From Natronolimnobius baerhuensis (GTDB taxonomy: Archaea > Halobacteriota > Halobacteria > Halobacteriales > Natrialbaceae): 64,000 nucleotides of DNA. The stretch is taken from positions 5,955 to 69,954 of the forward strand of contig NZ_MWPH01000006.1 in the NCBI RefSeq assembly GCF_002177135.1, given 5' to 3'. The notes beneath the pieces were generated by a model. It searched no databases. It had not been told where the DNA came from and saw nothing but the letters and a program-made list of their open reading frames with translations. Positions 14,060-57,783 of the stretch are shown one piece after another (position 1 is the stretch's first letter; the number at the start of each line of letters is the position of its first letter). Both the position numbers and the translations under genes were made by a program.

Positions 14060-14244
14060 TCAGCCTGCGGCGCACCAGCGCATAGTGGTATGCGTTTTAG
14101 TATGTCCGGTGCCGACCTCTGAGCAGTGATATCGACAGCGCGACCGACAAATCGACTCGCCTCCCCACAAAAGGGGTGCCAGATCGGTCGCGACGGTCCC
14201 CCACCGACGGGAGACACCACAGCGGGCGGTGAGAAGACACCCCA

Positions 14245-16318: not shown

Positions 16319-16346
16319 CATCCCACCAGAGACAGTGTGCACGTAC

Positions 16347-19300
16347 ATGGAATTCGATGGAGGGAACCACAGTTGGGTTACAACCGATGGGAAATACTTT
16401 CTTTACAGTATACTGGCACTGATCGTCACCCCAATACTGCTTCTTCTCGGCGGAATTTGGTATGTCGTCCTTGCTATTCCAGGGGCGATCATTGACTGGC
16501 TGATACTAACTATACTCGGTGACGGACTGATTCACGGGTTTTATACTGTTCTTATGATATTCGTGATCATCGTCGGTTTCGTTGCGATCTTTGGAGCCAT
16601 CGCCACTATGTTTATTGGAACAAATCCAACGCCTGAACTACCAACAGGGGTTAGAAGTGGTCTCTGGTGGCTTGGACTGCCAGTGATTGGCGCAGCGGGT
16701 CTTCTGTACGGTTTACTCTCGGGTTTTGTGATTGACTCGACAACTCAATTTCTTGTCACTCTCCCTGTATTTATTTTTGTTACACTTCTTATTGCAACGC
16801 GAACCTTGAGCGTTGTTCGACAGTCGAAATCGTCGGAGGATGTAGCGTTGACCGCAACGACAGTGCTCGCGGGTTATGTAATCGTCGCTGGCGTCCTCGA
16901 CTCGATGGCGCTGGTTGCGGTCGTTCCAGCTGTATTGGATCCAATCAGCGGATGGCCGGGTCTAGGCGCTGTGTATCTTCCGGTGTTGTTGCTCCTCTTC
17001 GTTATCCTCTCCCCACTCGAGCGACTCGGGGCAGTAGACGTGAGCGGGAGCGGAACGCTATCGGCAATTGACTCAGGTTCAATCGAAGAGTTGCCGACAC
17101 ATCTGCCGCTGTTTTTTGATGCCGAGTCCGGTGACGGGTTATTCGCTGCTCTAGCCATTGCGTTTGTACTCGTTCCCGCTGCCAGTGCACTCATCGAATC
17201 ATCGTGGCATGGGTATCGAGTCGGGACCGATATCCGTACTCAAAAACACAAACTCGGATCACGAAAACACAGGTTCGAAAAGGCCCGCAACGAGTACCGT
17301 ACCGCTGTCGAGAACGCTGAAGCCGCACTCAAGGACGACCGCTACGACGAAGCCGAACAACTCGTTACCGATGTCGCCCAACCCAAGCTGAACGCGTGCC
17401 AACGACTGCACAAAAGCTACGAAATTTCGAAGTCCACTCCCGACAGCAATCGATTGGAGAATCTCAAGTATGAGCTAGAACGATACGAAGCCGATCAAAA
17501 ACTTGAGGACCTGATTCAGCAACAGGAAGAGATCGTCGACGAATATTACCAGCACCGCGACGCGGCCAACCACGAGAAGGCGGTTGAAGCCCTGCGACAA
17601 GCAAAGTCGATCGCACGTGACTGTACAAACACAGCTTCAGGATACAATCTTGGATATGACCTCGAAGACTTGCTGTCCATGTCGACAGACGAGATTGACG
17701 CCGCGATGGCCGACCTCGAGGCAGTACAATCGAAGGCCACGCTCGAGAACATTGTAACAAAATACGTGACGACTCTCGCAGCCTTCGACGATGCGGTTTG
17801 GGACGGTAACCTCGAACGCTGCGAGACGCTATTCGAGGCGCTGCGTCAGAAACGCTCGCGGATCGAGCAACTCGAGCAAGAACTTGGAACCAACGCCAAG
17901 GCCCTCTCAGATGCTGATCGTGATCTCGATGGTCGGATCCACCACGTCACTCAGCAGGCGATTAGATCGAAATTTAACGAGGATATTGAGACCGGTGACT
18001 GCCACGGGGCGTTTGCCTGGCCCGAGGCGAAGGCACGTTACCTGCTCGCTTCGGGAACACAGGCTGCCGAAAACGGCAACTATCGAGACGCAATCGTACG
18101 AGCAGAGACTGTCTCAGATTATCTCTTACAGCACCTCGATGCCGGATCTCCAGACGATCGGAATCGAGATGCGTTGAGCAACCTACTCGGAACCGCCCGC
18201 GATCAGAAAGGGAAGTGGGAACGGCAGTTGATCGTACAACAGATCAACGACGCGGTCGACAGGGAACCGGACGAGTACGAAGAAGCGAGCAAAATCCTCA
18301 CGCGTGCGCTATCGCGGATCGATCAGACGAACGCGTTTGACGAGGAGGAGCGAGCGATCATCGAGCAGGATACCCGCAAAGCGTACGCCACCGTTCACTC
18401 GGATGGGGCATCTGCGCTCGTCGATAGCGGTAACGAACGACTCGAAGCTGGAGACGAATCGTCTGCTGTCACCTTTTACGAGAGGGCGATGACGGTTCTC
18501 GAGGATCTCAGCGATGCAGTCGCGGATTGGAACGACGTCACTAATGAACCCATTAATGAACAGTACGACGCAGTCGAACAGAAATACGTCGAGGCACAGA
18601 CGACACTTCTTGAGGAACGTATTCGTCTGGGAATCGATCAGTTCGACGCCGGTGAGTACGACGCCGCTCTCGAAACGTTCCGAGACGTGACAAACGAGAC
18701 CGAGACTGTCCGCGAGCGTGTTGAGAACGAATACGATCGTCTGCTGTATCTCCAAGACCTCACCGAAGCGAACGCGAAGACGACCCAACGAACCTCACTG
18801 GGTATTGGGACCGGATCGAAATCCCTCCAAGAACCCGAAGATGATGCGGCTGGCACAACCCAGCAAGATCATATCGATTCGAGTGCCAGTGCCACCTCAC
18901 AGGCTGCTGGTGCACCCGGAAACGACATATTCGACGCGGTTGAGGCATCGCTTCCAGATGAGATAGACTACATGCAACTCGAGAAGGACGCGGTGCTTGG
19001 GTCAGGTGGAAATGCGACCGTTCATAAAGCCAGGCTGGATGGCGACGAAACCAAGCATATCGCTCTCAAAGAGCCTCAGGTTCCTGAGGGAACAGTCGAC
19101 AAGGCACTGTTCGACCGATTCAGAGACGAAGCAGAAAACTGGGAAGAAGTCGACGATCATCCCCACGTCGTCAGCATCCTTGATCATGGTATGCACACGC
19201 TTCCCTGGATTGCGATGGAATATCTCGACGGCGGCCATCTCGGTGACCGTGTCGGGAAACTTGGAACTGAGCAGGCGTTATGGACCGCACTGGGTATCAC

Positions 19301-19802
19301 CAGAGCGATCAAACATGCTCACCGGCCTGGCATCACCCACCTCGACATCAAGCCTGAGAACATCCTCTTCAAATCGGTTGATGGGTACTGGGATATTCCC
19401 AAAGTCGCCGATTGGGGGCTAGCGAACCACCTTCTCGATCGTCCGGACGGCGTCGAAGGACTGTCGCCACAGTACGCTGCTCCGGAACAGTTTGATCCCG
19501 ATATCTTTGGCGACACCGACCTCGAGACGGACATCTACCAGCTCGGGGTCGTTTTCTACGAACTGTTTACGGGAACCCTGCCGTACGAGGGTGACCGCTA
19601 CAACGTGTTGCAGAACGATCCGGACCGAAAACCAACGCCTCCGAGTGAAATCGCAGACGTGCCACCAGAACTCGACGACGTGCTTCTGAAAGCGCTCGCT
19701 CCGGAGAAAGCAGACAGGTACGAGAATGTCGCCTTCCTCGAACAGGAATTAGAAGTGCTCTTCGAGTCGCTGGTCGAGGACATGAATCCTCCACAACGCT
19801 AG
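16347..19802 (+). CDS. membrane-anchored Hanks-type Ser/Thr protein kinase, paralog 1 (N-terminal multipass TM + ~650-aa helical/TPR-like region + C-terminal kinase)
   Basis: Kinase motifs: 'LGSGGNATV' (Gly loop), 'IALKEP' (Lys), 'HRPGITHLDIKPENILF' (catalytic loop), 'DWGLA' (DFG variant), 'SPQYAAPEQ' (APE). The six-frame track starts at GTG 16335. ATG 16347 fits the TATA spacing. Confidence 0.85.
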   Translation: MEFDGGNHSWVTTDGKYFLYSILALIVTPILLLLGGIWYVVLAIPGAIIDWLILTILGDGLIHGFYTVLMIFVIIVGFVAIFGAIATMFIGTNPTPELPTGVRSGLWWLGLPVIGAAGLLYGLLSGFVIDSTTQFLVTLPVFIFVTLLIATRTLSVVRQSKSSEDVALTATTVLAGYVIVAGVLDSMALVAVVPAVLDPISGWPGLGAVYLPVLLLLFVILSPLERLGAVDVSGSGTLSAIDSGSIEELPTHLPLFFDAESGDGLFAALAIAFVLVPAASALIESSWHGYRVGTDIRTQKHKLGSRKHRFEKARNEYRTAVENAEAALKDDRYDEAEQLVTDVAQPKLNACQRLHKSYEISKSTPDSNRLENLKYELERYEADQKLEDLIQQQEEIVDEYYQHRDAANHEKAVEALRQAKSIARDCTNTASGYNLGYDLEDLLSMSTDEIDAAMADLEAVQSKATLENIVTKYVTTLAAFDDAVWDGNLERCETLFEALRQKRSRIEQLEQELGTNAKALSDADRDLDGRIHHVTQQAIRSKFNEDIETGDCHGAFAWPEAKARYLLASGTQAAENGNYRDAIVRAETVSDYLLQHLDAGSPDDRNRDALSNLLGTARDQKGKWERQLIVQQINDAVDREPDEYEEASKILTRALSRIDQTNAFDEEERAIIEQDTRKAYATVHSDGASALVDSGNERLEAGDESSAVTFYERAMTVLEDLSDAVADWNDVTNEPINEQYDAVEQKYVEAQTTLLEERIRLGIDQFDAGEYDAALETFRDVTNETETVRERVENEYDRLLYLQDLTEANAKTTQRTSLGIGTGSKSLQEPEDDAAGTTQQDHIDSSASATSQAAGAPGNDIFDAVEASLPDEIDYMQLEKDAVLGSGGNATVHKARLDGDETKHIALKEPQVPEGTVDKALFDRFRDEAENWEEVDDHPHVVSILDHGMHTLPWIAMEYLDGGHLGDRVGKLGTEQALWTALGITRAIKHAHRPGITHLDIKPENILFKSVDGYWDIPKVADWGLANHLLDRPDGVEGLSPQYAAPEQFDPDIFGDTDLETDIYQLGVVFYELFTGTLPYEGDRYNVLQNDPDRKPTPPSEIADVPPELDDVLLKALAPEKADRYENVAFLEQELEVLFESLVEDMNPPQR

Positions 19803-19940
19803 GCTGCTCGCCGAGGCCCGGCCGAGCCGGGTACGTGGTCAATCTTGTTTCCAGTTCCTCCAAATCTGTTACTGAGAGCGATCTTTCTTCAAGGAAAGAA
19901 TCCCGCCGTTCATGGCGAGGAGGAAGTCACCAAAGCAGGA

Positions 19941-22900
19941 CTACTCCTGCTGATACTGGTCATCGTATAGTTCCTGCAGCGCGTCCCGCAGGTAGAGAAC
20001 CGACTCATACCGGTCGACCTTCTCTTTTGCCATGGCTGTTAACAGAATCTCGTCGAGTTCCGGCGGGACATCTGCGAGTTCGCTCGGCGGCTGCGGCGCT
20101 TCTGTGAGCACCTTGTTCATCACACGAGCCGGTTGTCCCTCGAACGGCGGCCGGCCCGTGAACAATTCATAGTAGACTGAGCCGAGTTGGCACACATCCG
20201 TAATATCGTCAGCCGACCCGTAGTTATCGTCGAACTGCTCGGGAGCTGCATAGTGTGGAGACAATCCTTCGATACTCTTGGAGTGCTCGAGCAGGTGTTT
20301 CGAGAGTCCCCAATCGGCTACTTTCGGGACATCCCAACCGTCTGTGACCGATCGAAAGAGGATGTTTTCGGGTTTTAAATCGAGGTGGGCGACGCCCCGT
20401 CGGTGAGCGTGTCGCACTGCCTCTGCCGTGACGATCGCCGTCCACAACGCGTGATCAAACGGCATTTCTCCGGCCCGATCGCCAACATGGCCGCCGTCCA
20501 TGTGCTCCATGGCGATCCACGGCAACGGTTGTGACCCCCAGTCAATTACGCCAACGATGTGATCGTGGTCGTCGAGTTTCGCCCATGTCTCGGCCTCCTG
20601 TGTGAATTCCTCAACGACTTGGGTACCGATCGTTCCCTGAATACGCGGCTCTTTGAGTGCAACCGTGTGAGTAGTACCGTCGACTGTGACAGTCGCGCAA
20701 TAAACGTCGGCATTACCCCCTCTGCCAATAGACTCATCCCGATCTAGTCGGTCGTATGCGAACTCAAGGTCTGGTGCGCCAGGGATCTCGGTCGCTATCG
20801 TCGAACCGACTGCCGAGACAATCGTTTCCGTCGCCTGTATCCGAGCACCGCTGGACTGGTGGCGGGCGTCCGGCTGCTCGAGCGCAACCGTTGCGACCTG
20901 ATTCGGCTCTCTCATCGTGGGATTTTCAGTTCCGATTCCCAGTGACGCACGCTGTGCTTTGCGAGCGTTGTCGCTTGCCACGCTCTGGAGGTGAGCGAGT
21001 TGATCCGCGTCGTCTGGATCTGCGATTTCGCCCTGAATCTCAACAGTCTCCTCGCCGACAGCTGTGAACGTCTCATATGCGGATTCGTACGATCCGTCCT
21101 CGAACGCCGCGATGCCATCACCGATCCGTTCGTTGATCCGAGTGACTTCTACTTCGGCTTTCCTTGTTTCAACCATCGAAGCGACTGCAGTCAACTCATC
21201 CGTCTCGATGTCGTCCCACGGTTTAGCTCTCGTAGCGGCCGTGGCAGCGACCTCAGCTGCCTCGTCGAATGCATCTGTCGCACGAGCGTATGCCTCGGAC
21301 TCAAGGTGCCGCTCGCCTTCCTCGAGCAGGTACGTTGTACCCTGAATACTGACCGAGAGGTACGCCTCGCGTGCCTCTTGTTTCAGGAAGTCCAGCTGAT
21401 GATCGTCGACTAATCGAACTTCCGAGAACTGTCCCAACACGGAGCCTAACTGTTCCAATGCGTCGTCGTATCCAGCTGGCTCCGCATTGAGAGCCGAGTT
21501 GATACGAGTAACCAGCATTTTCTGTTCCCAATCTGATCCGTTTTCGACAAGTTGCTTGCGGAACCGCTGGTACGGTTCTGTTTCGTAGTCGTGTTCGTTC
21601 GCATGTTCGACAGCCTGGTCCAGTGATGCGTTCGCGCTCCGAACATGCTCGACGGCGTTCCGGTAGTTTCCATGGTCAGCTTCGTCCGTCGCTCGCTGGA
21701 GTGAGTTCTCAACCAGCGTCGAGAGCAGATCGAACTCGAGTTCTCGAGCGGTATCCCATTGATCTTCTACCTCTTTGACGTGTGTCCTCAGATTGGGCTG
21801 TTTAGCCCAGTCGACTGCGGCGTTGAGATTCTTGAGTGCCTCCCGTATAGATGGCAGTGCAGCGGAGGGTGACTCCTTGGATGCCGTGTATTTGCCGTCT
21901 GCTAACGCCTTCACTCCGATTTGTCGTAGCGATGTAAACTTCACTTCCGAAAGTGATTTCCTCAGGTCGAATATCTCCGATTGGTCTATCGTAGAAACGA
22001 GGTGTACTGATTCCTCAACATCTTCTAATTCGGAGAGACCCACTTCGGCGTGTTCCAATGCTAGATGATAGTCGCCGGTACGTTCGGCGTCCTTTCCCTC
22101 CTGATAGCAGTTGTCTGCTACCTTGTATCCGCCGATTTTCGCCTCCAGAATTTGCTCTTGTATATATTCTTTTGCTTCGCCAACTTCATCTTGATTCTCC
22201 TGCGGTGCAAAGCTATATTGGGTTCCATCGTCGAGTTCGAATGATAGCTTATCGAAAAATATCGGTTTTTTCGAGGACGGATTTTGTATTTCCTCGTAGT
22301 CAAAGTACTGGATTTCGTCTCCCTTTTTCCTGCCAATGAGATAGATAAGACGTTCGTTCGTGACGATAAGATGCCGACTTCCTTCCTCATCGTCGCTAAA
22401 TGAGACATGATGCGGCGTTACCTCGCGCCCGCCAGGCTTCGTAATTCGAAATCCTTTTGTCTGATTCCTGAAGAAAAATTCGGGACGCTCCGCAGGTTCA
22501 AAAATCTTGATCGGGGGTTTATCGTACAGATGTTGAGTGAGGAACCCACCAGTATGTGTCAGTTGTTTCGATTGTATTGTCCCGCTCGCAGCCGCTGCTA
22601 GTTCTTCTGGTGTTGAGGGCGTTGGCTGTGGCTTGTCCTGAACGTCTTTCGAGAACGATTCAACCGATGATTCCATTGACGAATCTGTATCGTCATCGAC
22701 TCCATCTCGAGCGTACAGATAATATAGTGGATAGAAACCAATCGTTAGAAAGGTCAGCGTCAGTGTGATGATCCAATGTCGCTCAGTGACTTCGTTTGAG
22801 TGTTGGCTGAGTTGCTGCTTGTCTGTAGCGATATAGTATCCCGCAACAGGTAATCCGAAAAGAAACATGACACCCAGTAGAGGCACTAGTCCAGGAACAA

Positions 22901-22979
22901 TCACAGCACTGATCCACGACGCGAAGTACAGCGCGACCGTCCATTTGACATAGCGGTATGCACTGTCCGTTTCAGTCAT
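19941..22979 (-). CDS. membrane-anchored Hanks-type Ser/Thr protein kinase, paralog 2
   Basis: N-terminal TM helices and long helical middle. C-terminal 'IGRGGNADVYCATV', 'VALKEP', 'HRRGVAHLDLKPENILF', 'DWGLSKHLL', 'SPHYAAPEQF'. Confidence 0.85.
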   Translation of the reverse strand: MTETDSAYRYVKWTVALYFASWISAVIVPGLVPLLGVMFLFGLPVAGYYIATDKQQLSQHSNEVTERHWIITLTLTFLTIGFYPLYYLYARDGVDDDTDSSMESSVESFSKDVQDKPQPTPSTPEELAAAASGTIQSKQLTHTGGFLTQHLYDKPPIKIFEPAERPEFFFRNQTKGFRITKPGGREVTPHHVSFSDDEEGSRHLIVTNERLIYLIGRKKGDEIQYFDYEEIQNPSSKKPIFFDKLSFELDDGTQYSFAPQENQDEVGEAKEYIQEQILEAKIGGYKVADNCYQEGKDAERTGDYHLALEHAEVGLSELEDVEESVHLVSTIDQSEIFDLRKSLSEVKFTSLRQIGVKALADGKYTASKESPSAALPSIREALKNLNAAVDWAKQPNLRTHVKEVEDQWDTARELEFDLLSTLVENSLQRATDEADHGNYRNAVEHVRSANASLDQAVEHANEHDYETEPYQRFRKQLVENGSDWEQKMLVTRINSALNAEPAGYDDALEQLGSVLGQFSEVRLVDDHQLDFLKQEAREAYLSVSIQGTTYLLEEGERHLESEAYARATDAFDEAAEVAATAATRAKPWDDIETDELTAVASMVETRKAEVEVTRINERIGDGIAAFEDGSYESAYETFTAVGEETVEIQGEIADPDDADQLAHLQSVASDNARKAQRASLGIGTENPTMREPNQVATVALEQPDARHQSSGARIQATETIVSAVGSTIATEIPGAPDLEFAYDRLDRDESIGRGGNADVYCATVTVDGTTHTVALKEPRIQGTIGTQVVEEFTQEAETWAKLDDHDHIVGVIDWGSQPLPWIAMEHMDGGHVGDRAGEMPFDHALWTAIVTAEAVRHAHRRGVAHLDLKPENILFRSVTDGWDVPKVADWGLSKHLLEHSKSIEGLSPHYAAPEQFDDNYGSADDITDVCQLGSVYYELFTGRPPFEGQPARVMNKVLTEAPQPPSELADVPPELDEILLTAMAKEKVDRYESVLYLRDALQELYDDQYQQE

Positions 22980-23269
22980 AGTGATATCACCTATTCAGAT
23001 TTGCTACATATAATACTTTACTTTGTGATAAGTTATTAGATGGCTACATCGAGAGAACAGCAAATCGACTGCGAGACTGACTTCCCATAGGTGTGTTCCG
23101 TGCGGGGACTGTTACGACCTGTCCACCAGGTATTGCCGGAAAATGATTCTCTGCAAACCGATGGAGCATCTATCATTTATACTTATATTAATGGAAGCTC
23201 ATATTAAAGAACGGAAATAAGCCCCCCAGAGCCCTGTAATGCTGACTTTGCCGATTATCATAATTTCAT

Positions 23270-23282
23270 CGAAAGTATAAAT
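23270..23282 (+). promoter_or_regulatory. BRE/TATA promoter 'cgaaagtataaat' for kinase 3 (leaderless)
   Basis: 28 bp upstream of ATG 23310. Context 'tcatcgaaagtataaa' is conserved with 16301-16318. Confidence 0.55.
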
Positions 23283-23309
23283 AGATCCGTACTTCCAATT
23301 ATCCTGTAT

Positions 23310-26300
23310 ATGGGGATCGACGAACGCGATCAACACTGGTTCACTGCCGATATCACGCACTTTGTGTATAGTATCTTTTCGCCAATTACAGTTCCATTTG
23401 TCCTCCTAGCGGCGATGATTTGGCTACTCATTGTTGGCATTCCAGGTTTTATGCTCGAGTGGATTATCAAGCTTATTTTCACGGAGAACGGACTCGTTCA
23501 CTCACTCTATATGATCGTTTTCCTGTTTGTGATAGTCGTCGTTTTTGTCGGCTATTTCGCATTCGCTCTCATCGAATATCTCACCGCAGAGCCGATGCCG
23601 GACCAAATGCCAACGAGCACGGCCGGCTATTGCTGGTGGATTGGTCTTCCTGTTCTCGCTGCCGTCGCCGTGCTTGCCGGCCTCGCCGCCGGTGTCGAGA
23701 TTGAGTCGACAAGACAGTTCCTCGTCCTAGTCCCGCTATTCGTGTTCGGTTCAGTGCTCCTGATGACGCGAACGCTAAGTGTCGTTCGACGGTCGAAATC
23801 CTCGGCCGACGTCACCGTCACCGTCACTACCGTCGTCATCGCCTACATACTCGTCGCTGGCGTCCTCGAGGCGGTCGGCCTGTTCGTGGTTGCCCCGTTC
23901 CTCTTCGAACCAATAAGCGAGTGGCCCGGCATGGCATCGGTGTATGTTCCGCTGTTGCTTGTCCTCCTCGTCATAATCGAACCGCTCGACGCACTCGGAC
24001 TGCTGGATTCATCCTCGACTGACGGCTCCACTGATCCCGGTGAAATGGCGGCGAATGTCCCAGTTTTGTTCGACGCTGAAACGGGAGAAGGCCTGTTTAT
24101 GTCGCTAGCGCTCACGTTTGTCGTCCTTCCCGCTCTCGTCGCAGTCGTCGAATCATCGTGGCATGGATATCAAATCACATCCGAGATACGTGCCCGGAAA
24201 AACAGGCTCAAGGCGCGGAAACGTAAATTCGAAGAGACTTCTAGGGAGTTCAACTCCGCCATCGAAGATGCCGAAGCTGCACTCGAGGACGACCGTTACG
24301 ACGAAGTCGAACGGCTGGTCATCGACGTTGCACAGGCCAAGCTGGATCGGTGCCAGCGACTGCACAAGAACTACGATATTCCGGAGTCCGTTCCTGCCAG
24401 TGCTCGAATCGAGAATTTGAAGATTAAACTGAAGCGACACGAGGCCAAACAAGAACTCGAAGACCTGATCCAACGACAAGAGGAACTCATCGAGGAGTAC
24501 CGCCAGAACCGCGATGCAGCCAACTACGAGAAGGCGAAAGGATCGCTGCGTCGAGCAAAGTCGGTCGCAAGCGACTGTACAAACACAGCGCGGGAACACG
24601 GCCTCAAGTACTCGCTACCAATGTCGAGCAATGACATTGACGCCGCGATAGCTACCCTCGAGGCGACAGAGACCGAAGCCGAACTCGAAGACATCGTCGC
24701 CGAATACGAGTCCCATCTGTCGACGTTCGACGACGCGATTTGGAGCGGTGACCTGGATCGCTGCGATACGCTGTTTGAGACGCTACGTCAGAAACGCTCG
24801 CAGATCGAGCAACTCGAGCACAAACTAGGGACCAATGCCGAGGCGCTCTCGAGTGCTGATCGGGATCTCGCTGACCGGATTCACCACGCAGCCCAGCAGA
24901 CGATTAGGACGAAATTCGATGTGGGTGTTGGGACCGGTGAGTGCGACGGCGCGTTTGCCTGGCCCGAGGCAAGAGCACGCTACCTGCTCGCTTCGGGGAG
25001 ACAAGCTGCTGAAAATGGCGAGTATCGAGACGCAATCTCGCGAGCAGAGACCGTCGCCACCGACCTCTTACAGCACCTCGACGACGGGTCCCCCAGCGAA
25101 CGGAATCGAGACTCACTGGGAGACCTGATAGGGACCGCCCGAGATCACAAGGGAGAGTGGGAACGACAGTTGATCGTCCGACAGATCAACGACGCGGTCG
25201 ACAGAGAACCGGACGAGTACGAGGAGGCGAGCAAAATCCTCACAAGTGCACTGTCGCGGATCGATCAGACGAATGCGTTTAGCGAGGAAGAGCGAGCGAT
25301 CATCGAGCAGGATACACGCAAAGCGTATGTTACCGTTCGCTCGGACGGGGCATCTGCGCTCGTCGATAACGGTAACGAGCGGCTCGAAGTTGGCGACGAA
25401 TCGTCTGCAGCCACCCATTATGAGGACGCGATGACAACTCTTGGGGACCTCGGCGATACAGTCGCAGAGTGGAACGACGTTAACAATGAACCCATTGATG
25501 AACAGTACAACGCAGTCGAACAGAAATACGTTGAAACACAGACGACACTGCTTGAGGAACGTATCCGGCTGGGAATCGACCAGTTCGACGCCGACGAGTA
25601 TGACGCTGCTCTCGAGACGTTCCGAAACGTGACGAACGAGACCGAGACTGTCCGCGAGCGTGTCGAGACCGAATATGATCGTCTATTGTACCTCCAAGAC
25701 CTCACCGAAGCGAACGCGAAGACGACCCAGCGCACCTCGCTGGGTATTGGGACCGGATCGAAATCCCTACAAGAACCCGAACAGGATGCGGCTGGCACAA
25801 CCCACCGGGAGCATATGGACTCGAGCATCAACTCCACCTCACAGGCCGCCGGCGCACCCGGAAACGACATATTTGACTCGATTGAGGCATCGCTTCCCGA
25901 CGAGATAGACTACATGCAACTCGAGAAAGAGACGGTGCTTGGGTCGGGTGGAAACGCGACCGTCCACAAAGCCAGGCTGGATAGCGATGAAACCCAGTAT
26001 ATCGCCCTCAAAGAGCCCCAGGTTCCTGAAGGAACAGTCGACAAGGCACTGTTCGACCGATTCAGAGACGAAGCGGAAAACTGGAAGCAAGTCGACGATC
26101 ACCCTCATATCGTCAGCGTCCTCGATCACGGTATGCACACGCTGCCCTGGATCGCAATGGAGTATCTCGACGGCGGTCATCTCGGTGACCGCGTCGGACA
26201 ACTCGAGACTGAGCACGCGTTGTGGACCGCACTAGCAGTCACCAGAGCGATCAAACATGCTCATCGACCTGGCATTACCCACCTCGACATCAAACCTGAA

Positions 26301-26741
26301 AACATCCTCTTCAAATCGGTCGATGGATACTGGGACATTCCCAAAGTGGCCGACTGGGGGCTAGCGAATCATTTGCTCGACCGTCCGGATGCCGTCGAAG
26401 GACTGTCACCGCAGTACGCTGCTCCGGAACAGTTTGATCCCGATATCTTTGGCGACACCGATCTCGAGACGGATATCTATCAACTCGGAGTCGTCTTCTA
26501 CGAACTGTTTACCGGAACGCTGCCGTACGAGGGTGACCGGTACAAGGTGTTGCAGAACGAACCGGAGAGAACGCCAACGCCTCCGAGTGAACTCGCAGAC
26601 GTACCACCAGAACTCGACGACGTGCTTCTGAAAGCACTGGCCCCGGAGAAAGCGGACAGGTACGAGAACGTCGCCTTCCTCGAGCAGGAATTAGAAGTGC
26701 TCTTTGAATCGCTGGTCAACGACGCGAGTCCCCAGCGTTGA
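23310..26741 (+). CDS. membrane-anchored Hanks-type Ser/Thr protein kinase, paralog 3 (recent duplicate of paralog 1)
   Basis: Same architecture as paralog 1. The C-terminal ~800 aa are ~90% identical to 16347-19802. The kinase domain is near-identical. Confidence 0.85.
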   Translation: MGIDERDQHWFTADITHFVYSIFSPITVPFVLLAAMIWLLIVGIPGFMLEWIIKLIFTENGLVHSLYMIVFLFVIVVVFVGYFAFALIEYLTAEPMPDQMPTSTAGYCWWIGLPVLAAVAVLAGLAAGVEIESTRQFLVLVPLFVFGSVLLMTRTLSVVRRSKSSADVTVTVTTVVIAYILVAGVLEAVGLFVVAPFLFEPISEWPGMASVYVPLLLVLLVIIEPLDALGLLDSSSTDGSTDPGEMAANVPVLFDAETGEGLFMSLALTFVVLPALVAVVESSWHGYQITSEIRARKNRLKARKRKFEETSREFNSAIEDAEAALEDDRYDEVERLVIDVAQAKLDRCQRLHKNYDIPESVPASARIENLKIKLKRHEAKQELEDLIQRQEELIEEYRQNRDAANYEKAKGSLRRAKSVASDCTNTAREHGLKYSLPMSSNDIDAAIATLEATETEAELEDIVAEYESHLSTFDDAIWSGDLDRCDTLFETLRQKRSQIEQLEHKLGTNAEALSSADRDLADRIHHAAQQTIRTKFDVGVGTGECDGAFAWPEARARYLLASGRQAAENGEYRDAISRAETVATDLLQHLDDGSPSERNRDSLGDLIGTARDHKGEWERQLIVRQINDAVDREPDEYEEASKILTSALSRIDQTNAFSEEERAIIEQDTRKAYVTVRSDGASALVDNGNERLEVGDESSAATHYEDAMTTLGDLGDTVAEWNDVNNEPIDEQYNAVEQKYVETQTTLLEERIRLGIDQFDADEYDAALETFRNVTNETETVRERVETEYDRLLYLQDLTEANAKTTQRTSLGIGTGSKSLQEPEQDAAGTTHREHMDSSINSTSQAAGAPGNDIFDSIEASLPDEIDYMQLEKETVLGSGGNATVHKARLDSDETQYIALKEPQVPEGTVDKALFDRFRDEAENWKQVDDHPHIVSVLDHGMHTLPWIAMEYLDGGHLGDRVGQLETEHALWTALAVTRAIKHAHRPGITHLDIKPENILFKSVDGYWDIPKVADWGLANHLLDRPDAVEGLSPQYAAPEQFDPDIFGDTDLETDIYQLGVVFYELFTGTLPYEGDRYKVLQNEPERTPTPPSELADVPPELDDVLLKALAPEKADRYENVAFLEQELEVLFESLVNDASPQR

Positions 26742-26833
26742 GGGGTCTTTCGCCGGTGGGTCTCGAACCGACTCGTCCAGACCGTCCCGACGTAGTCCTT
26801 GGAGACGGTTCACCTGCTGAATTGACGGTGGTG

Positions 26834-28372
26834 CTACGGTTCAATCGTTCCGAACAAACCAACCGCTTTGCGTCGCCGATAGAGATATAATAGGAACGTC
26901 AATGCATAGGCGATAAGGCCGATGTAATAGAGGTAGCGCCGCGGCGACCACTCGATCCGCTCACTCTGTTGAAACAGTACCATCTCCTTGTTCCAAGCGT
27001 AGAAGAATCCGATGATAGAACCAAGTATGATCACTGCACCGCCGTCAGTGCCGCTTGCGCCGCCAAGGATGAAGGCCGGGAACGACCCGTATAGTATATG
27101 ATGCGTATGAAGCGTACCGAAATCGGTCTCGATTACTGCTGACGAAACGCGTTGTGCTGGCGTGGGTTCGGTTGGTGATTGTTGCGAGGGCGATTCGGAC
27201 GTAGAACGCGAGTTCGGTTGTTCAACACCGGTGTCAGCTCCCGTATTGGGACGGGTTGTATCACGCCTGTCTGTTTCTTTGTCATTATTCGAAACCGATG
27301 GATCACCAGGATTCGTTATCGTCGTTCCACTGTTCGTGCCGGCCTGATCGGTTGATGAAACTGTACCGCGCTGAGTTGAAGTGGACGCTGATGTCGAGTC
27401 GCTGGTGTTCTGTGAAGGTGTACTTCGAGGAGCTGCCATCGATTCGGCCGGGTCGTTGCCGAGTGCCAACTCGAGCAAACGGTTGAGTTCGCGTTTGAAG
27501 TCAAGAATTGACTCGTACCGATCAGATTTGTCCTTTGTGAGTGCGCGCATGAGCGCGCTGTCGGTTCCCTCGGGGAGACCATCAACTCGTTCACTGGGTG
27601 GTATCGGTTCCGACTCGAGGACGTCATGCATGACGGTCGCGGCAGATCCAGTAAACGGTGGTTCGCCGACGAGCGCGGCGTACACAACCGCACCAGTTGC
27701 ATAGATATCTGTGTAGTCGTCGGTATGCCCGTAGGTTTCGTCATCGAACTGTTCGGGGGCGGCATAGTGTGGCGACAGTCCTTCGATGCTCTGAGAGTGT
27801 TCAAGCAGCATCTTCGCAAGTCCCCAATCAGCGACTTTTGGAACATCCCACGAACCCGGCTCCGTCTCTGCGAACAAGACGTTTTCCGGTTTGAGATCGA
27901 GATGGGCAATACCTCGCCTGTGAGCGTGACGGACCGCACGAGCGATGCAGACGCCGATCCACAGCGCTTCTGCGGGCTCGAGATCGCCGAGTCGCGCATC
28001 GAGACTGCCGCCATCCATGTATTCCAGTGCAATCCATGGGAGCGGCTGACTCTCATAACCGAGCACGCTGACGATGTGATCGTGGTCGTCGAGTTTCTCC
28101 CACGTCTCCGCCTCTGCAGTGAACTGTGAAAGGGATTCGACGTCTAGTGTCCCCTGCATTCGTGGCTGTTTCAGCGCACAGATGTCAGGCCCCTCACCCT
28201 TGAATTGAACCTTGGTGACATCGGCGTTCCCCCCTGATCCAATCGCCTCGAGTTCTTCGAAATCTGTGAAGTCAGCGTCGATCCGGACAGGATCGGTATC
28301 AGCAACGTCCGGACGTAAATCCTTGTGTACCCCCGAAGACATATCTCTGTTCTCGAATACTGAGAGAACCAT
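26834..28372 (-). CDS. Hanks-type Ser/Thr protein kinase with inverted architecture (N-terminal kinase, S/T/P-rich linker, C-terminal TM helices)
   Basis: 'IGSGGNADVTKV', 'ALKQP', 'HRRGIAHLDLKPENVLF', 'DWGLAKMLL', 'SPHYAAPEQF'. Low-complexity STP/Q linker. Two or three C-terminal hydrophobic helices. Confidence 0.85.
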   Translation of the reverse strand: MVLSVFENRDMSSGVHKDLRPDVADTDPVRIDADFTDFEELEAIGSGGNADVTKVQFKGEGPDICALKQPRMQGTLDVESLSQFTAEAETWEKLDDHDHIVSVLGYESQPLPWIALEYMDGGSLDARLGDLEPAEALWIGVCIARAVRHAHRRGIAHLDLKPENVLFAETEPGSWDVPKVADWGLAKMLLEHSQSIEGLSPHYAAPEQFDDETYGHTDDYTDIYATGAVVYAALVGEPPFTGSAATVMHDVLESEPIPPSERVDGLPEGTDSALMRALTKDKSDRYESILDFKRELNRLLELALGNDPAESMAAPRSTPSQNTSDSTSASTSTQRGTVSSTDQAGTNSGTTITNPGDPSVSNNDKETDRRDTTRPNTGADTGVEQPNSRSTSESPSQQSPTEPTPAQRVSSAVIETDFGTLHTHHILYGSFPAFILGGASGTDGGAVIILGSIIGFFYAWNKEMVLFQQSERIEWSPRRYLYYIGLIAYALTFLLYLYRRRKAVGLFGTIEP

Positions 28373-42435: not shown

Positions 42436-43770
42436 TTACTGAGATTGCTTACGGAGTTGAGCTTGAACCACCGCTTGGAGTTCGTCATCATGCACATCAT
42501 CAAACCGAGAGTCTTCACGAAGCGTATCCATGATTGTTTCTGGACTTTCAGCAAACGAAAACTCGAGATAGCTCCCTGAGTGTGGACCTTGGCTTTTGCG
42601 TTCGGATTCCACGAGAGAGTACGTCGTCAACTCCTTCATCTTGTTGACATAGGTCTCTTGATGATACTGATCTACATTGAGCGTGTCTGTGAGATATCGA
42701 TAGACAGTGTAGCCATTCGGGCTTTTTGCAGTCCCGTTGCCAGCTTGTTGAGCTACCGCCGCTGTTGCCAGTAAACAGAGTTTTTTCTGAGTACTGATTC
42801 CACGCGTGACCTCCAGTACGCGGTTCTTCTCGACTTTATCTTGGGCTTTTCGTACGTGAGTTTCACTTACCTGATCTGCAGCCTCACGTTCAGCAATGGA
42901 CCCTGCTGTCCGCATCAAGTCGATTGCCTTTCGAGCATCACCGTGAGTTTGGGCAGCGAATGCAGCTGCAAGTGGGATCACATCTTCACTGAGTGCATCC
43001 TCATAGAACGCATCCGTCCGATGGTAGAGAATTTCCCGAAGCTGGTTCGCGTCATAATCATTGAAATGGACATCCTCAGGAGTAAACGAACTCACTGCAC
43101 GGCTCCCGACATTGGACATCATTGTGGCATCGTTTGTAATCGCTGTCACTGAAACGTTTGCCCTCGTATCGTCAGTACTTCCAGCCCGAGAGAGTTGGTA
43201 CAACAATCGCGAAAACGCAGGTTCATCGATATCCCGACGGCCAACCAGCATATCGAGTTCATCGAGAATAACAACTACAGTGTCGTAGTGTTCATCAATC
43301 AACCGATACAGCTCACGCCATTTCTTTTTTGTTGGGATACCGTGCTCAGGCACTTCGACCGTAACGCCAGCATCAGTAGCAACCTTCCGCGCGAGTTCAT
43401 AAACTGCAGAACCAAGCGTACCGACATTTTGGCAGTTCATGTGGATAACGCCAAAGCGAATGTCTCGAGTCTCGCATAGCTCAAGGATGTTTTTACAGAC
43501 TGCGTTGATGATCAACGATTTTCCTGTACCTGATGGACCATAGAGGAAGAGATTAGGTGGTCGTTCACCGTTGATAGCAACGCGAAGATGCTGAGTGATC
43601 TCTGTAAGCTGTGAATCTCGCCCAACAATGCGGCCTTCATCAACAATCTCGTTAGGCTCCAAGAGAGGCCGGTTCCGGATAAGACTCGCAGATTCCTCCT
43701 GATCGAGAATAAGATCCTTAATAGAACCCGTCTCACCAGGCGGGGTCCCTGAATCTGGATCTTTTGACAT
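42436..43770 (-). CDS. orc1: Orc1/Cdc6 replication initiator (AAA+ plus winged helix)
   Basis: Walker A 'GPSGTGKS', Walker B 'VVVILDELDML', sensor 'HGDARKAIDLMRTAG', C-terminal WH domain. Flanked on both sides by ORB-like repeats. Confidence 0.9.
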   Translation of the reverse strand: MSKDPDSGTPPGETGSIKDLILDQEESASLIRNRPLLEPNEIVDEGRIVGRDSQLTEITQHLRVAINGERPPNLFLYGPSGTGKSLIINAVCKNILELCETRDIRFGVIHMNCQNVGTLGSAVYELARKVATDAGVTVEVPEHGIPTKKKWRELYRLIDEHYDTVVVILDELDMLVGRRDIDEPAFSRLLYQLSRAGSTDDTRANVSVTAITNDATMMSNVGSRAVSSFTPEDVHFNDYDANQLREILYHRTDAFYEDALSEDVIPLAAAFAAQTHGDARKAIDLMRTAGSIAEREAADQVSETHVRKAQDKVEKNRVLEVTRGISTQKKLCLLATAAVAQQAGNGTAKSPNGYTVYRYLTDTLNVDQYHQETYVNKMKELTTYSLVESERKSQGPHSGSYLEFSFAESPETIMDTLREDSRFDDVHDDELQAVVQAQLRKQSQ

Positions 43771-43908
43771 ACAAAGGCCCTCACAGTCAATTGACTAAAA
43801 GGTTCCCCTATCGATATGTATTTTCTCAGTAGAGGTGTTAGGAAGGGGGTTTGTGGGTTTTTCAGTTATAGGTTCGGAAACCTACAACGACTTGTTACAG
43901 GACAGTCT

Positions 43909-44270
43909 CACACCCCTATCGATTTGTTCGAGCCGGAAGAGGGGTGGAGTCCTAAAAGCAAGAAGAGTTGACCAAGATAGCGGAAGACGAGTAGATGCAG
44001 TTGATGCATTTGTTATTCTAGGTTTCTAGTCTAGAACTAGAATAGAACACACTCCTATCGATTTGTTCAACTTGACACCAGCAACAATGTTTCACCTCTG
44101 ATCTACTCGATATGATCGGTCGGCGAACCATTATTAATCTATAATCTAATCCCTCTAACACCACATTTCCTCGTTGAAAGAGCGTCTGCTGATAAATATT
44201 GAATTGAATCCCCAGTCCTACAGCTCCCAGTCTATTTTGAGCAAAAACAAATCGATAGGGGTGTCTGTGT
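43909..44270. repeat. origin-recognition-box-like repeats, cluster B (3 copies; one inverted) upstream of orc1
   Basis: 43909-43930 'cacacccctatcgatttgttcg' (+), 44048-44068 'cacactcctatcgatttgttc' (+), 44244-44270 'aaacaaatcgataggggtgtctgtg' (inverted). Confidence 0.6.
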
Positions 44271-50801: not shown

Positions 50802-51151
50802 CCGCAGGAACGTGGGCATTCTCGATCTCGAGAGTCCTTTCGCATATTCCGAATACAAATACTATACCTTGTTTGAACGCATGATTTCACGGATGTGAGT
50901 CCTCGATGGCGCGTTCGATGTTGCGGACGGCAGATTTCATGACAAGTTCACGGAATTGCCCGAACCAAGTTCTCGACCAGAGCGTATCGCCGTATCTGCG
51001 TCGAAGGCCGAAAAACACCGATTCAGCGTTTGAACGCTGGTGATACGCTCAATCCTTGATTGAGCATGTCTGTCGCAAGTTGATGAGAACAGGTCGTCTG
51101 GAGGAGTTGTCCGAGCGGTTCTTGGAACCGTCTTTTTTCGAGTGCTGTAGA

Positions 51152-51712
51152 CTACATTGATTGACGACGAACGTCTGCAATTGCATCCGGCAGTTCGTCG
51201 ATATGTTCGATTGCAACTTTCAAAATTGCATCGTGAATCTCTCGCGTCTCCTCATCGCGGATTCCCATCCGACGAAGTTCGGGCGTCACCGTAATTCCAA
51301 GTTCGTCCTCGAGTTCGTTCCACGTCGAATCACGTGCGTACAGTGGCTTTTGTCGGACTTCACTGTACTCGAATGCCGGACCAGTCTCGGCTGCATCCGG
51401 TTCATCATCATTGGTGGTGTCAGTCTCGGTTTCACCCGTGACAGCTTCGGCATCTGTGACTGGGGCGGTCTCCTCCGAAGCCTCAGCACGCGATTCTGGT
51501 TCAGCATGGTGCATTGCCGGCGACTCCGAAGATGATTCCACAGGGGGTGAGACATCATCCGTCGATTCCGGTTCCGTGGATGTCGACGAATCCGCCACTG
51601 GTTCTGAAGCCGGTGTCTCAGTACCAGTCGGTGCACTTGAGTCAGTCTTACCCTCGATCTCGTCCGCGTCGTTCTCGTCACCAGCTTTGAGATCATCGAA
51701 CGGGTTGCTCAT
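51152..51712 (-). CDS. acidic protein translationally coupled to parA (candidate centromere-binding/ParB-analog)
   Basis: 186 aa with an extremely acidic N-terminal half and a basic/helical C-terminal 60 aa. ATGA overlap with parA at 51709-51712. Confidence 0.5.
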   Translation of the reverse strand: MSNPFDDLKAGDENDADEIEGKTDSSAPTGTETPASEPVADSSTSTEPESTDDVSPPVESSSESPAMHHAEPESRAEASEETAPVTDAEAVTGETETDTTNDDEPDAAETGPAFEYSEVRQKPLYARDSTWNELEDELGITVTPELRRMGIRDEETREIHDAILKVAIEHIDELPDAIADVRRQSM

Positions 51713-52629
51713 CGATTAATCCCTCCGGCCGCAACGATTTCGGCGAGTTCCTCGTAGTGTTCAATCTGGTCACTTTCGCTCTCGTAATCCTGCAACGGTT
51801 GGTTGTGCTGAAGCGACCGGGAGAGTGCCGACCGGTGCCGGATGCCCGGCTTCGGCGCAGTCATCTCACCGGAGTCAATCGACTCGAATTCGGATGCCGT
51901 GATTCGGGCGAACTCCGGCACCGCATCCTGGAGTGGCTGGCCAGGGTTGACCTCATAGGTTGCCGTGTTGAGATTCTCGAGGAGTTCCCGGTCTTCGGTC
52001 TGTTGATCGATCCGATCTGAGAGCTTGTTCGGGATCACCGCAAGGACGTCAACGTCGATATACTCGCGAGCCGGTTCGATCAATCGCTCCATCGTTCGCT
52101 TGTAGCCACCGATTGCACTCGAGCCAGGTTCGATTGGGATCATCACGTTGCCCGTCGCGACGAGTGCATTATTGTTCAACATGCCCGGATATGCCGGACA
52201 ATCAAAAACGATGTACTCGTACTCCTCCCCAAGCAGCGGATCGACAATGTTTGACTTGACTCGCGCCGACCCTTGCATCGCACCCGCGAGATCTTTCTCG
52301 ACATCCTCGAGCGTGTTCGAGGAGGGGAGGAGATCGAACTCGTAGTCAGTCGGTTGGATGAGATCGTGTGGTGTGGCATCCCCATCGAGAATCACGTCGC
52401 CGAGATTGACGTCTGCCTGATAGGCGTCGGTGAATCCGAGTCCGTTTGTCGCGTGCCCATTTGGATCGAGATCCGCGAACAGGACTCGCCCGCGTTCTGC
52501 GAGTTGGCGCGCGAGATTCATCGAGGTTGTTGATTTTCCGACACCGCCTTTCAAGATGACTACGCTTACAGCGCGTGGGGAAGTTGTTGCTGACATTGTT
52601 GGCGCTGCCCGCTTCGATTTAATAGGCAC
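51709..52629 (-). CDS. parA: ParA/Soj-family partition ATPase
   Basis: Deviant Walker A 'ILKGGVGKSTT', 'FADLDPNG' and 'VFDCPA' motifs. The start may be the internal 'MSATTSPR'. Confidence 0.85.
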   Translation of the reverse strand: MPIKSKRAAPTMSATTSPRAVSVVILKGGVGKSTTSMNLARQLAERGRVLFADLDPNGHATNGLGFTDAYQADVNLGDVILDGDATPHDLIQPTDYEFDLLPSSNTLEDVEKDLAGAMQGSARVKSNIVDPLLGEEYEYIVFDCPAYPGMLNNNALVATGNVMIPIEPGSSAIGGYKRTMERLIEPAREYIDVDVLAVIPNKLSDRIDQQTEDRELLENLNTATYEVNPGQPLQDAVPEFARITASEFESIDSGEMTAPKPGIRHRSALSRSLQHNQPLQDYESESDQIEHYEELAEIVAAGGINR

Positions 52630-52689
52630 CTATTGTACCATGAATGCCAGTCTTAGCGGACAGTACACACATATAATCAGTTCTACTTA

Positions 52690-53050
52690 GTTGTACCGCA
52701 GGTAGGCTCAGTAGGTGGCTTAGGTCCAATAGGTGAAATAGGTAACTCAGAAAAGGTAGGTGAGTTGAACGAGGCACCTATTGTAGCTAACTTGTGTAGA
52801 GAGAGTTAGCAGGTACAACAGCAAAGAGAGGTGCAATAGGCACCGTAGCTACAATAGAATAGGTAGCTGAGTTAGCTATTGCACCTAGAGAAGCGGATTG
52901 TGATGGAGTTACGTAGAAGAGAGGCTGGCTACGTAAGAGAAGAAACAATAGGTGGGCCAGGCGGGGAAGGTGAAATAGGTAGAATAGGGGAGATAGGTGG
53001 GTAAAAAGGAGAACCGAGAGAGACGGGAGACGGAATAGAACAGTTCGCGA
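52690..53050. repeat. iteron array of (A)ATAGGT(G) hexamers upstream of parA (candidate centromere/parS-like site)
   Basis: More than 15 copies of ATAGGT / AGGTAG in both orientations within ~360 bp, e.g. 'ccaataggtgaaataggtaac' and 'ggtgaaataggtagaataggggagataggtgggt'. Confidence 0.6.
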
Positions 53051-53178
53051 TCCCAGAGCACTTTGCACCCAGACAGCAAAGATATGAGGGTCTTTGTCGA
53101 AAGAGAGAGACAGCAAGAACGCTTCGAAGGTTGACCTCGAAATACTTTCCCCTCACCTGATCGAGACATACACACCGC

Positions 53179-53591
53179 ATTTCCGGTGAAAATGGTTGAG
53201 ACTGTGTTTGTCTTTTCTCCAAAGATGAACTCTTTTGAACTGCTTCTCCCCCTAGTTATATATAGCATGTGTGAGTAAAACTCATTAAGTTAATCACAAA
53301 CAAGAAAGAAGTAGCATCACTTCGTGTCCCCAGTTGAATTCATCCTTCACTCCTTCTCAAACGTCTATTCTTAGTATCTGTTTTTTGTTTGTCTCTGCTG
53401 TCGCACGATGTTTCCGGTGAAAATCAACCTCCGTTTCCCGTGAACACCACACTCTCTCGAATCCACTTTCACCGGAAACGTGGTGTGTGTGTCGGCGAAA
53501 CGTTCAAGAGATTTCACCGGAAACGTGGTGTGTCTTCAAAATGCGTACGACACTGCTCGGTGAGTATGTAGACACCGTATTTCCGGTGAGA
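53179..53591. repeat. five copies of dyad element TTTCACCGGAAA(C) (two with G-rich tail 'GTGGTGTGTG'); mini-ORB-like
   Basis: 53179-53190 (-), 53411-53422 (-), 53467-53491 (+, 'tttcaccggaaacgtggtgtgtgtg'), 53512-53534 (+), 53580-53590 (-). 'tttccggtgaaa' is the reverse complement of 'tttcaccggaaa'. Confidence 0.55.
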
Positions 53592-53615
53592 TGACGCGGG
53601 TTCGTCGTGGAGACA

Positions 53616-57102: not shown

Positions 57103-57783
57103 CGCTGAAGGATGAGACGAGGTGATTTTCAGCTGGTCTATGGCGAAAACCGTTCGTCTCAGTGGTCGTAGCGACTGGATTGAATTAGACTTTGTGGAGC
57201 GAGAGCGGACACCGCGCCAGCTGATGAAGCTCGGTATTCGGCTACATCTTGCGGGATTATCGCCTTCGAATACCGTTCGAGAATTAGAGAAGTTCGGTGT
57301 CGAACGGTCGCGGAAAGCTGTTCACGACTGGGTACAGAAAGCAGATCTACAGCCAGCCAGCAACGCGAGTCCGGATCACGTTGCGCTCGACAAGACGGTG
57401 ATCCGAATCAACGGCCAACAGTTCTGGCTGTATGCTGCGGTCGATCCCGACACAAACGATTTCCTGCACGCAAGGCTGTTTACAACGACTACGACGGCAT
57501 TAACACAGCGGTTCCTGCAAGAACTTTGTGAGAAACACGACGTCGATGACGCCGTGTTTCTCGTCGATCATGCCCATCATCTAGCGACAGCACTCCAGCG
57601 AATCGGGCTCCGATTTCGACTCGAACGACACGGAAATTGGAACGCTATCGAACGTGTCTTTCGAGAGGTAAAACGACGAACCTCCTTGTTCAGTAATAGC
57701 TTCGGCCACGTCGATCCATCAACCGCCGAAACGTGGTTACAAGCCTTCGCCGTCTGGTGGAATTCGCGTAACTAAACACGATG
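57089..57783 (+). mobile_element. IS6-family insertion sequence (ISH-type) with imperfect ~17-bp terminal inverted repeats
   Basis: Left 'tcgtgtttagttaacgc' (57089-57105) and right 'gcgtaactaaacacga' (57768-57783), one indel apart. They enclose a single 217-aa transposase. Confidence 0.7.
57122..57775 (+). CDS. IS6-family DDE transposase
   Basis: 217 aa. N-terminal HTH 'LGIRLHLAGLS...TVRELEKFGVERSRKAVHDWV'. DDE region 'WLYAAVDPDTNDFLHARLF...AVFLVDHAHHL...ERVFREVKRR'. Confidence 0.85.
   Translation: MIFSWSMAKTVRLSGRSDWIELDFVERERTPRQLMKLGIRLHLAGLSPSNTVRELEKFGVERSRKAVHDWVQKADLQPASNASPDHVALDKTVIRINGQQFWLYAAVDPDTNDFLHARLFTTTTTALTQRFLQELCEKHDVDDAVFLVDHAHHLATALQRIGLRFRLERHGNWNAIERVFREVKRRTSLFSNSFGHVDPSTAETWLQAFAVWWNSRN

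Follow-up and report, generated by a model that had tools for sequence, protein, structure and literature searches.

Archaeal DNA segregation is poorly understood, and a locus of Natronolimnobius baerhuensis raises the question of where on its DNA a two-gene haloarchaeal partition system may take hold. The locus lies in a stretch of 64,000 nucleotides (contig NZ_MWPH01000006.1, positions 5,955 to 69,954; hereafter the window) and forms a minus-strand cassette in which a repeat array is followed by parA, the gene of a partition ATPase, and then by a gene for an adaptor protein of 186 aa. An earlier note on this DNA had taken the arrangement for a centromere, a ParA and a centromere-binding protein. 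That reading is supported by the homology of the two proteins to HpaA and HpaB of Haloferax volcanii pHV3, by an operon that is invariant in 42 related loci, and by a motif, a phasing and a palindrome that recur across genera. There is good reason to regard the locus as a two-gene partition operon of the archaeal HpaAB family together with its cis site, type-Ib-like in design, with an array that would serve as centromere and operator at once. The adaptor is the protein predicted to bind the array, and is likely to do so. The HpaAB system itself has already been described; the prediction of the centromere and operator and their 9-bp architecture are the new part.

The first gene of the cassette encodes an HpaA-like, Walker-type partition ATPase. 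Its open reading frame (ORF) comprises 306 codons (51709-52629, minus strand), and the gene is placed at 51709-52596, giving a protein of 295 aa that starts at the ATG at 52596 and ends at a TGA (51709-51711). The GTG at 52629 was rejected as a start after alignment of the upstream regions of relatives, because homologues align from the ATG and the GTG would put a conserved palindrome, described below, within the gene. The product matches Pfam AAA_31 (1e-29) and CbiA (3e-13) and carries the deviant Walker A motif KGGVGKST. Its best NCBIfam match, "ParA family partition ATPase", falls under the equivalog cut-off, and the closest solved structures are those of ParA and Soj (8ray, 1wcv, 6iub). 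The end of parA and the start of the adaptor gene share an ATGA stop/start overlap (51709-51712, minus strand), read directly from the sequence, so the coupling of the two genes is as the earlier note had given it. Two other records of the same species have parA called as two genes of 67 and 228 aa (L001 9118-10004, from GCA_001316185.1, and L002). The two segments match the window ParA at 97-100% identity, and the split is probably a frameshift error in those assemblies.

The array occupies 52620-52998, running from -24 to -402 when counted from the parA ATG, immediately upstream of the gene as first described. Its 16 units, each with a TAGG core, have the consensus CAATAGGTR, occur as direct and inverted copies on both strands and are phased at 9 bp. 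The original description of more than 15 ATAGGT hexamers was right about a dense array, and the count holds once degenerate copies are included; only eight copies are exact, and the unit is a 9-mer rather than a simple hexamer iteron. The total of exact ATAGGT in the 64 kb (17) is unremarkable, since 17 of 100 shuffles reach the same number. What is unusual is the clustering: 8 of the 17 fall in 52628-52998, where the rest of the window predicts 0.06. Likewise, 16 TAGG cores are found in 52600-53010 where 0.78 are expected (Poisson P ~4e-16). Matches to CAATAGGT are similarly concentrated, with 4 sites at 8/8 positions (0 expected), 10 at ≥7/8 (0.10 expected) and 16 at ≥6/8 (2.3 expected). Overall, the motif is about 20-fold above the background within the window, and no further motif cluster was found outside the array in the 64 kb.

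The array resolves into the palindrome and four or five sub-clusters, each in its own 9-bp phase, most clearly at 52699-52762 and 52945-52998. Sub-cluster 1 (52699-52762, plus strand) is made up of six units with a TAGG core that keep a single 9-bp register; the T of the core stands at 52703, 52712, 52721, 52730, 52739 and 52757. Within this sub-cluster, Tandem Repeats Finder (TRF) reports a period of 9 at 52721-52743. It is followed by a unit on the minus strand (52772-52790) that combines a perfect CAATAGGT at 52776-52783 with a degenerate partner half-site. Sub-clusters 3 and 4 (52833-52891) hold five units in both orientations (52834, 52852 and 52857 on the plus strand, 52874 and 52883 on the minus strand). 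Sub-cluster 5 (52945-52998, plus strand) keeps one 9-bp register, with units at 52946, 52973, 52982 and 52991 and a degenerate unit near 52964. The idea that the array is part of a coding sequence was rejected: the ORFs of 109, 119 and 41 aa inside it have no counterpart outside the species, and a 52-aa ORF has weak matches only, which are accounted for by conserved DNA motifs.

The second gene, hpaB-like (51152-51712, minus strand), is assigned by homology and by its position 3′ of parA, and its product is the predicted centromere-binding protein. Pfam PF25925 (DUF7970) is the precomputed annotation of a 100%-identical N. baerhuensis protein (P0001) and of all 116 homologues. Nothing meaningful emerged when the full-length protein, its last 73 residues and three homologues were scanned locally against Pfam and NCBIfam; the local Pfam apparently lacks the PF25925 model. 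Neither database returned a match to the ParG, ω or CopG families. In a profile search of 1.84 billion representative proteins the family is small (263 members of 64 to ~210 aa), and no relative of the adaptor was found on the viral contigs searched.

The adaptor comprises three parts. The N-terminal peptide MSNPFDDL (residues 1-8; 51689-51712, minus strand) is the predicted ParA-contacting tail, as judged from its conservation and its likeness to HpaB: N3, P4, F5, D6, D7 and L8 are invariant or ≥90% conserved in 51-91 homologues. It is followed by a hyper-acidic disordered linker (residues 9-110; 51383-51688, minus strand) that varies in length and has no conserved alignment columns. Residues 1-110 contain 33 D/E and 3 K/R (pI 4.05). 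In the full-length AlphaFold2 (AF2) model residues 1-120 are disordered, and the linker has a predicted local distance difference test score (pLDDT) of ~50 and no secondary structure. The conserved C-terminal domain (residues 111-186; 51155-51382, minus strand) is a putative ribbon-helix-helix (RHH) domain for DNA binding and dimerization, as suggested by the alignment and the AF2 model. The acidic N-terminus reported earlier is therefore real, but the C-terminus is not basic, its 76 residues (18 D/E and 10 K/R, pI 4.61) being just less acidic than the remainder.

Conservation in the C-terminal domain extends over ~75 residues (GPAFEYSEVRQKPLYAR..TW......P.L....D.E.RE.HDA.L..A). Within the subfamily Y125 does not vary, and across 137 diverse members of the family this tyrosine is ≥90% conserved. 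The AF2 model of residues 108-186 (pLDDT 85) shows coil at 1-20 and helices at 21-41, 49-62 and 64-78 (model numbering), so that the stretch through VRQKPLYAR is extended and three helices come after it. The domain is probably an RHH fold, which fits the models; fold searches with the monomer did not confirm it. PDB searches with profiles of 91 and 137 sequences returned chance matches only (e.g., TFIIE and proteasome subunits).

The nearest described counterpart is HpaAB, which maintains and equipositions pHV3 of H. volcanii (bioRxiv 10.1101/2025.11.19.689047, a November 2025 preprint). The secondary replicons of this organism carry four operons of a ParA and an uncharacterized gene, with overlaps of 4-8 nt, and operons of the HpaAB type are often near origins (bioRxiv 10.1101/2025.11.19.689047). 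HpaB (HVO_B0018) is a small disordered protein with an RHH motif predicted by AlphaFold3 (AF3). Focus formation and the restoration of pHV3 copy number depend on its Y74, a residue of the predicted DNA-binding strand; the HpaA-dependent ordering of foci requires its N-terminus (~12 residues; residues 2-12), and deletion of hpaB lowers pHV3 copy number (bioRxiv 10.1101/2025.11.19.689047). The window ParA is 51% identical to HpaA (HVO_B0017) over 293 aa (BLASTP, E 4e-103), and the DUF7970 profile aligns with HpaB over 89 columns (hhalign probability 98.4%, E 1e-14), placing H70 and Y74 of HpaB opposite Q121 and Y125 of the window protein. HpaB starts with MSEDPFGDL and the window adaptor with MSNPFDDL, giving a common PF(D/G)DL peptide, and both loci have a 4-nt gene overlap, an acidic disordered linker and a C-terminal domain with the same tyrosine. 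In contrast to HpaB, the window adaptor belongs to a mainly Natrialbaceae subfamily with the VRQKPLYAR segment, and the motif is CAATAGGTR where pHV3 has two copies of AGATTATT. Moreover, of the two loci it is HpaAB of pHV3 that has been studied by experiment.

The operon and its array are conserved together. A scan of one genome per species yielded 42 related loci, each encoding a relative of the adaptor, and ParA lies directly upstream of the DUF7970 gene in every one. Seven of the 42 are in records titled "plasmid" and none in records titled "chromosome". Identity to the window proteins ranges from 73 to 89% for ParA and from 46 to 81% for the C-terminal domain of the adaptor. In most loci the words CAATAG, AATAGG and ATAGGT dominate the 700 bp upstream of ParA; they cluster from about -30 to -400 relative to the ParA start and are scarce elsewhere in the loci. 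With the window included, TAGG cores reach 19.4/kb in the upstream 600 bp vs. 2.1/kb elsewhere. Same-strand cores are spaced at 9, 18, 27 and 36 bp in 84, 89, 45 and 49 pairs, respectively, and any other lag up to 40 bp accounts for ≤10. From 468 sites of 41 related loci a position weight matrix (PWM) was derived, which returns the 9-mer CAATAGGT(A/G), with flanks that repeat the same pattern. At the DNA level no close plasmid relative was found in PLSDB, where megablast of the locus matched only an insertion sequence (IS) fragment of the IS5 family at 50900-51065. In four related loci (L012, L013, L020 and L041), extra small CAATAGGT clusters occur 1.4-4.5 kb downstream from the ParA start, again with spacings of 9 or 18 bp between units; this suggests more than one centromere cluster per replicon.

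The element nearest to the gene is the palindrome CAATAGGTGCCTATTA (minus-strand reading; 52620-52635), 24-39 nt upstream of the parA ATG. It is the predicted operator, on account of its conserved position: 36 of 42 loci, the window included, have CAATAGGnnCCTATTG, with ≤3 mismatches allowed, 30-69 nt ahead of the ParA start. CAATAGGnnCCTATTG consists of two repeat units set head to head in the same 9-bp register. Immediately 5′ of the palindrome there is a CTGAAA(C/T)AG element, and ~75-80 nt upstream of the ATG a TATA-like element is conserved. A scan for bacterial sigma-70 promoters found nothing and is not relevant to an archaeal host. A second inverted repeat, GTCCGCTG ... CAGCGGAC, flanks the palindrome in the window (~52602-52665) and at -20 to -70 in the closest ParA clade (e.g., L004, L006, L022 and L036), with symmetric changes in both arms in L009 and L036. 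This GTCCGC-type repeat is not universal, being seen only in the subset nearest to the window; a lenient screen for any 7-nt inverted pair around the palindrome, with one mismatch allowed, returned 28 of 36 loci. Its role could be that of a promoter element, a hairpin or a further protein site.

Beyond these loci, the adaptor domain was found by tblastn on 72 PLSDB plasmids of many haloarchaeal genera, often in the first 2 kb of the record, and in all five plasmid records whose annotation was consulted (pHV4, Halobaculum, Haloarcula, Halobacterium and Salinigranum) a "ParA family protein" and a "hypothetical protein" are adjacent, in that order. The distant subfamilies have other motifs upstream and retain the 9-bp period, lag-9 autocorrelation being present in 5 of 6 upstream regions. 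Halobacterium pHcu_235 carries six tandem copies of TCTACTGTG with a period of 9 (TRF), Haloarcula pHsi139 has ACCTAAG units, and pHV4 has ACAATTTGTA-type sites upstream of parA, one of them ~35-50 nt before the start. The exception is Salinigranum, in which AGCTACCTA-type units give autocorrelation peaks at lags 14, 23 and 27 and not at 9. The 260-bp upstream region of pHV3 contains only AGATTATT twice, at 9-bp spacing. Specific candidate binding sites can be named in two of these replicons: the several ACAATTTGTA and GAAATTGTA sites upstream of pHV4 parA (L045 1900-2310), and, for HpaB, the two copies of AGATTATT together with CATAATTATT upstream of hpaA in pHV3 (L046 8262-8522).

Together, the conservation of the ATPase, the fast evolution of the adaptor and a cis-repeat varying with the adaptor subfamily make up the classic signature of a partition system. 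A repeat that changes with the adaptor subfamily while ParA is conserved is what would be expected of a centromere co-evolving with its binding protein; the correspondence is qualitative. An attempt to read DNA specificity from the strand residues Q-x-P-x-Y-x-R was abandoned, as the Halobacterium homologue keeps them with another repeat. On balance, though with some reserve, the phased 9-bp arrays upstream of parA can be proposed as the centromere ("hpaS") of the whole HpaAB family. The 9-mers would be subfamily-specific, CAATAGGTR in the window, TCTACTGTG in Halobacterium plasmids, ACAATTTGT in pHV4 and AGATTATT in pHV3, each unit would take one adaptor dimer within a helical filament, and ParA would be activated by the acidic peptide without an arginine finger. 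If true, this would be an archaeal high-salt solution convergent with bacterial type Ib. The subfamily-specific repeats also suggest how the incompatibility of co-resident haloarchaeal replicons may be encoded.

For the window locus the following sequence of events may be envisaged. The adaptor would dimerize via its C-terminal, probably RHH, domain, and the dimers would bind the 9-bp units in 52620-52998 cooperatively and in either orientation, giving rise to a partition complex. The palindrome in the promoter region would be occupied likewise, and its occupation would lead to autoregulation of the operon. The acidic linker may then present MSNPFDDL to ATP-bound ParA dimers held non-specifically on the nucleoid DNA. 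This contact would stimulate ATP hydrolysis and the release of ParA, so that copies of the replicon become spaced by a diffusion ratchet, the mechanism that has been proposed for HpaAB (bioRxiv 10.1101/2025.11.19.689047).

Several observations speak against this picture. Six Natronococcus-type loci have just two or three copies of the motif. The Halobacterium adaptor shares Q-x-P-x-Y-x-R with the window protein, yet its repeat differs. No Arg or Lys is conserved in the N-terminal peptide, and K9 is variable; ParG and other activators of ParA, by comparison, have arginine-finger tails with a basic residue. From the experimental side, deletion of hpaA left the copy number of pHV3 unchanged, and the binding site of HpaB is stated to be unknown (bioRxiv 10.1101/2025.11.19.689047).

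Another use of the repeats would be in transcription only: the array would mediate autorepression of parA-hpaB by the adaptor or by a host regulator, and the true centromere would lie elsewhere on the replicon. The best-conserved element is indeed a single palindrome at the promoter, and both the Natronococcus-type loci, with their few copies, and the four loci with additional clusters downstream of the ParA start can be read in the same way. An operator, however, requires one or two sites, whereas the window has ~16-18 units spread over 380 bp in five phased clusters, and the 64 kb hold no second motif cluster. In type Ib systems, moreover, operator and centromere are the same repeats, as in parH of TP228 and parS of pSM19035. 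A purely regulatory array is considered unlikely. The repeats might also be the iterons of a replication origin, bound by an initiator, with the par operon merely located beside it. An origin-like structure of five 22-bp elements and an AT-rich stretch of ~190 bp does lie ~150 bp past the array, in pHV4 and Halobacterium pHcu_235 the operon has orc1 next to it, and the frequent closeness of HpaAB-type operons to origins would fit as well. The motif nevertheless follows the ParA-DUF7970 operon and not orc1, which is found within 4 kb in only 9 of the 42 related loci. It is unlike the G-run repeats beside the orc1 of the window, no Rep-type initiator gene is adjacent, and the neighboring 22-bp element is absent from the related loci. 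Iterons are therefore a very improbable explanation.

It might finally be asked whether the cassette still works or is the inactive relic of an integrated or decaying plasmid. The operon is bordered at its 3′ end by the IS5 fragment, an IS6 transposase is located 4.5 kb away, and parA is split in another assembly of the species. Against decay, both genes are intact, with the N-terminal peptide and the invariant residues preserved, and the array retains four perfect units and its 9-bp phasing; with 97-100% identity apart from the split, parA of GCA_001316185.1 is consistent with an assembly error. A dead cassette is thus quite unlikely, and the partition operon with its combined centromere and operator is the preferred reading.

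Among bacterial systems this operon is closest in design to type Ib (ParF/ParG/parH of TP228 and δ/ω/parS of pSM19035). Shared features are a small ParA lacking an N-terminal helix-turn-helix (HTH), a small, dimeric adaptor whose N-terminal tail is flexible and whose C-terminal domain is an RHH (putative in the window), and short direct and inverted repeats upstream of the operon that are likely centromere and operator in one. ω binds 7-bp heptads in either orientation; the window unit, in contrast, is 9 bp long. Further differences are the absence of sequence similarity between the adaptors, the hyper-acidic linker of ~100 residues, an acidic N-terminal tail without conserved Arg or Lys, and the archaeal host.

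The archaeal systems are less similar. SegAB of Sulfolobus/Saccharolobus likewise pairs a ParA-like ATPase with a small site-specific DNA-binding partner, which has been compared with HpaB as an RHH protein (bioRxiv 10.1101/2025.11.19.689047). However, SegA (7dut) matches the window ParA around the P-loop only (E 6e-9, residues 10-56), and no similarity of SegB to the adaptor emerged from the PDB searches with either profile; the SegA dimer is of the non-sandwich type (bioRxiv 10.1101/2025.11.19.689047). The AspA-ParB-ParA system of Sulfolobus pNOB8 is also an archaeal plasmid partition cassette with its site upstream of the operon. It consists of three genes, including a winged-HTH AspA and a ParB adaptor (bioRxiv 10.1101/2025.11.19.689047), whereas the window has two genes, neither of which encodes a ParB/Srx domain. 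Canonical ParABS systems (type Ia/chromosomal, with a ParB-CTPase) are not matched either, as the window genes lack a ParBc domain and the repeat unit is 9 bp instead of a 16-bp parS.

Taken with its 42 relatives, the locus offers a concrete candidate for the site of HpaB, namely a unit of 9 bp kept in strict register, a palindromic operator that is conserved, and sequences specific to each subfamily. With regard to annotation, HpaB-like partition adaptor would be a suitable name for DUF7970 proteins. The presence of the locus also suggests that its contig is a plasmid or secondary replicon, and the adaptor gene is found on a contig of ~111-112 kb in two assemblies of N. baerhuensis. The surroundings point the same way. 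The orc1 and IS elements mentioned in the earlier note are present: orc1/cdc6 (42436-43770, minus strand; Pfam Cdc6_lid and Cdc6_C) lies 8.7 kb from the par locus and is accompanied by origin-type repeats, and remnants of IS5 and IS6 type were found. No tRNA genes occur in the window, and the ORFs scanned include no housekeeping genes, only accessory ones (kinases, regulators and secreted proteins). With these features, it is plausible that the window belongs to a plasmid, a secondary replicon or an integrated element.

In the AT-rich intergenic region upstream of orc1 (43800-44270), CACAC(C/T)CCTATCGATTTGTTC occurs three times in direct and once in inverted orientation; the complement of this repeat has a G-run. 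The region probably represents the replicon's canonical origin of replication, the one adjacent to orc1. The structure beyond the distal end of the array, at 53165-53593, consists of five copies of an element of ~22 bp, ACACACCRCRTTTCCGGTGAAA, on the plus strand at 53170, 53404 and 53572 and on the minus strand at 53467-53488 and 53512-53533 (an identical pair). The copies flank the AT-rich stretch at 53200-53400. The element was not found in the related loci of other species. The region resembles an archaeal origin, with inverted repeats similar to origin recognition boxes (ORB) around an unwinding element, yet no orc1 is adjacent.

The IS5-family fragment directly 3′ of the par operon shares 89-94% identity with copies carried by plasmids of Natrinema, Haloterrigena and Natronorubrum, and the IS6-type transposase ORF (DDE_Tnp_IS240) is located at 57122-57775. 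Farther away, 16335-28372 contains a cluster of four large genes whose products (1155, 1012, 1143 and 512 aa) have Ser/Thr protein kinase domains of eukaryotic type, and beside them, at 12011-15942, lie a seven-transmembrane (7TM) histidine kinase and a Bat-type HTH_10 regulator.

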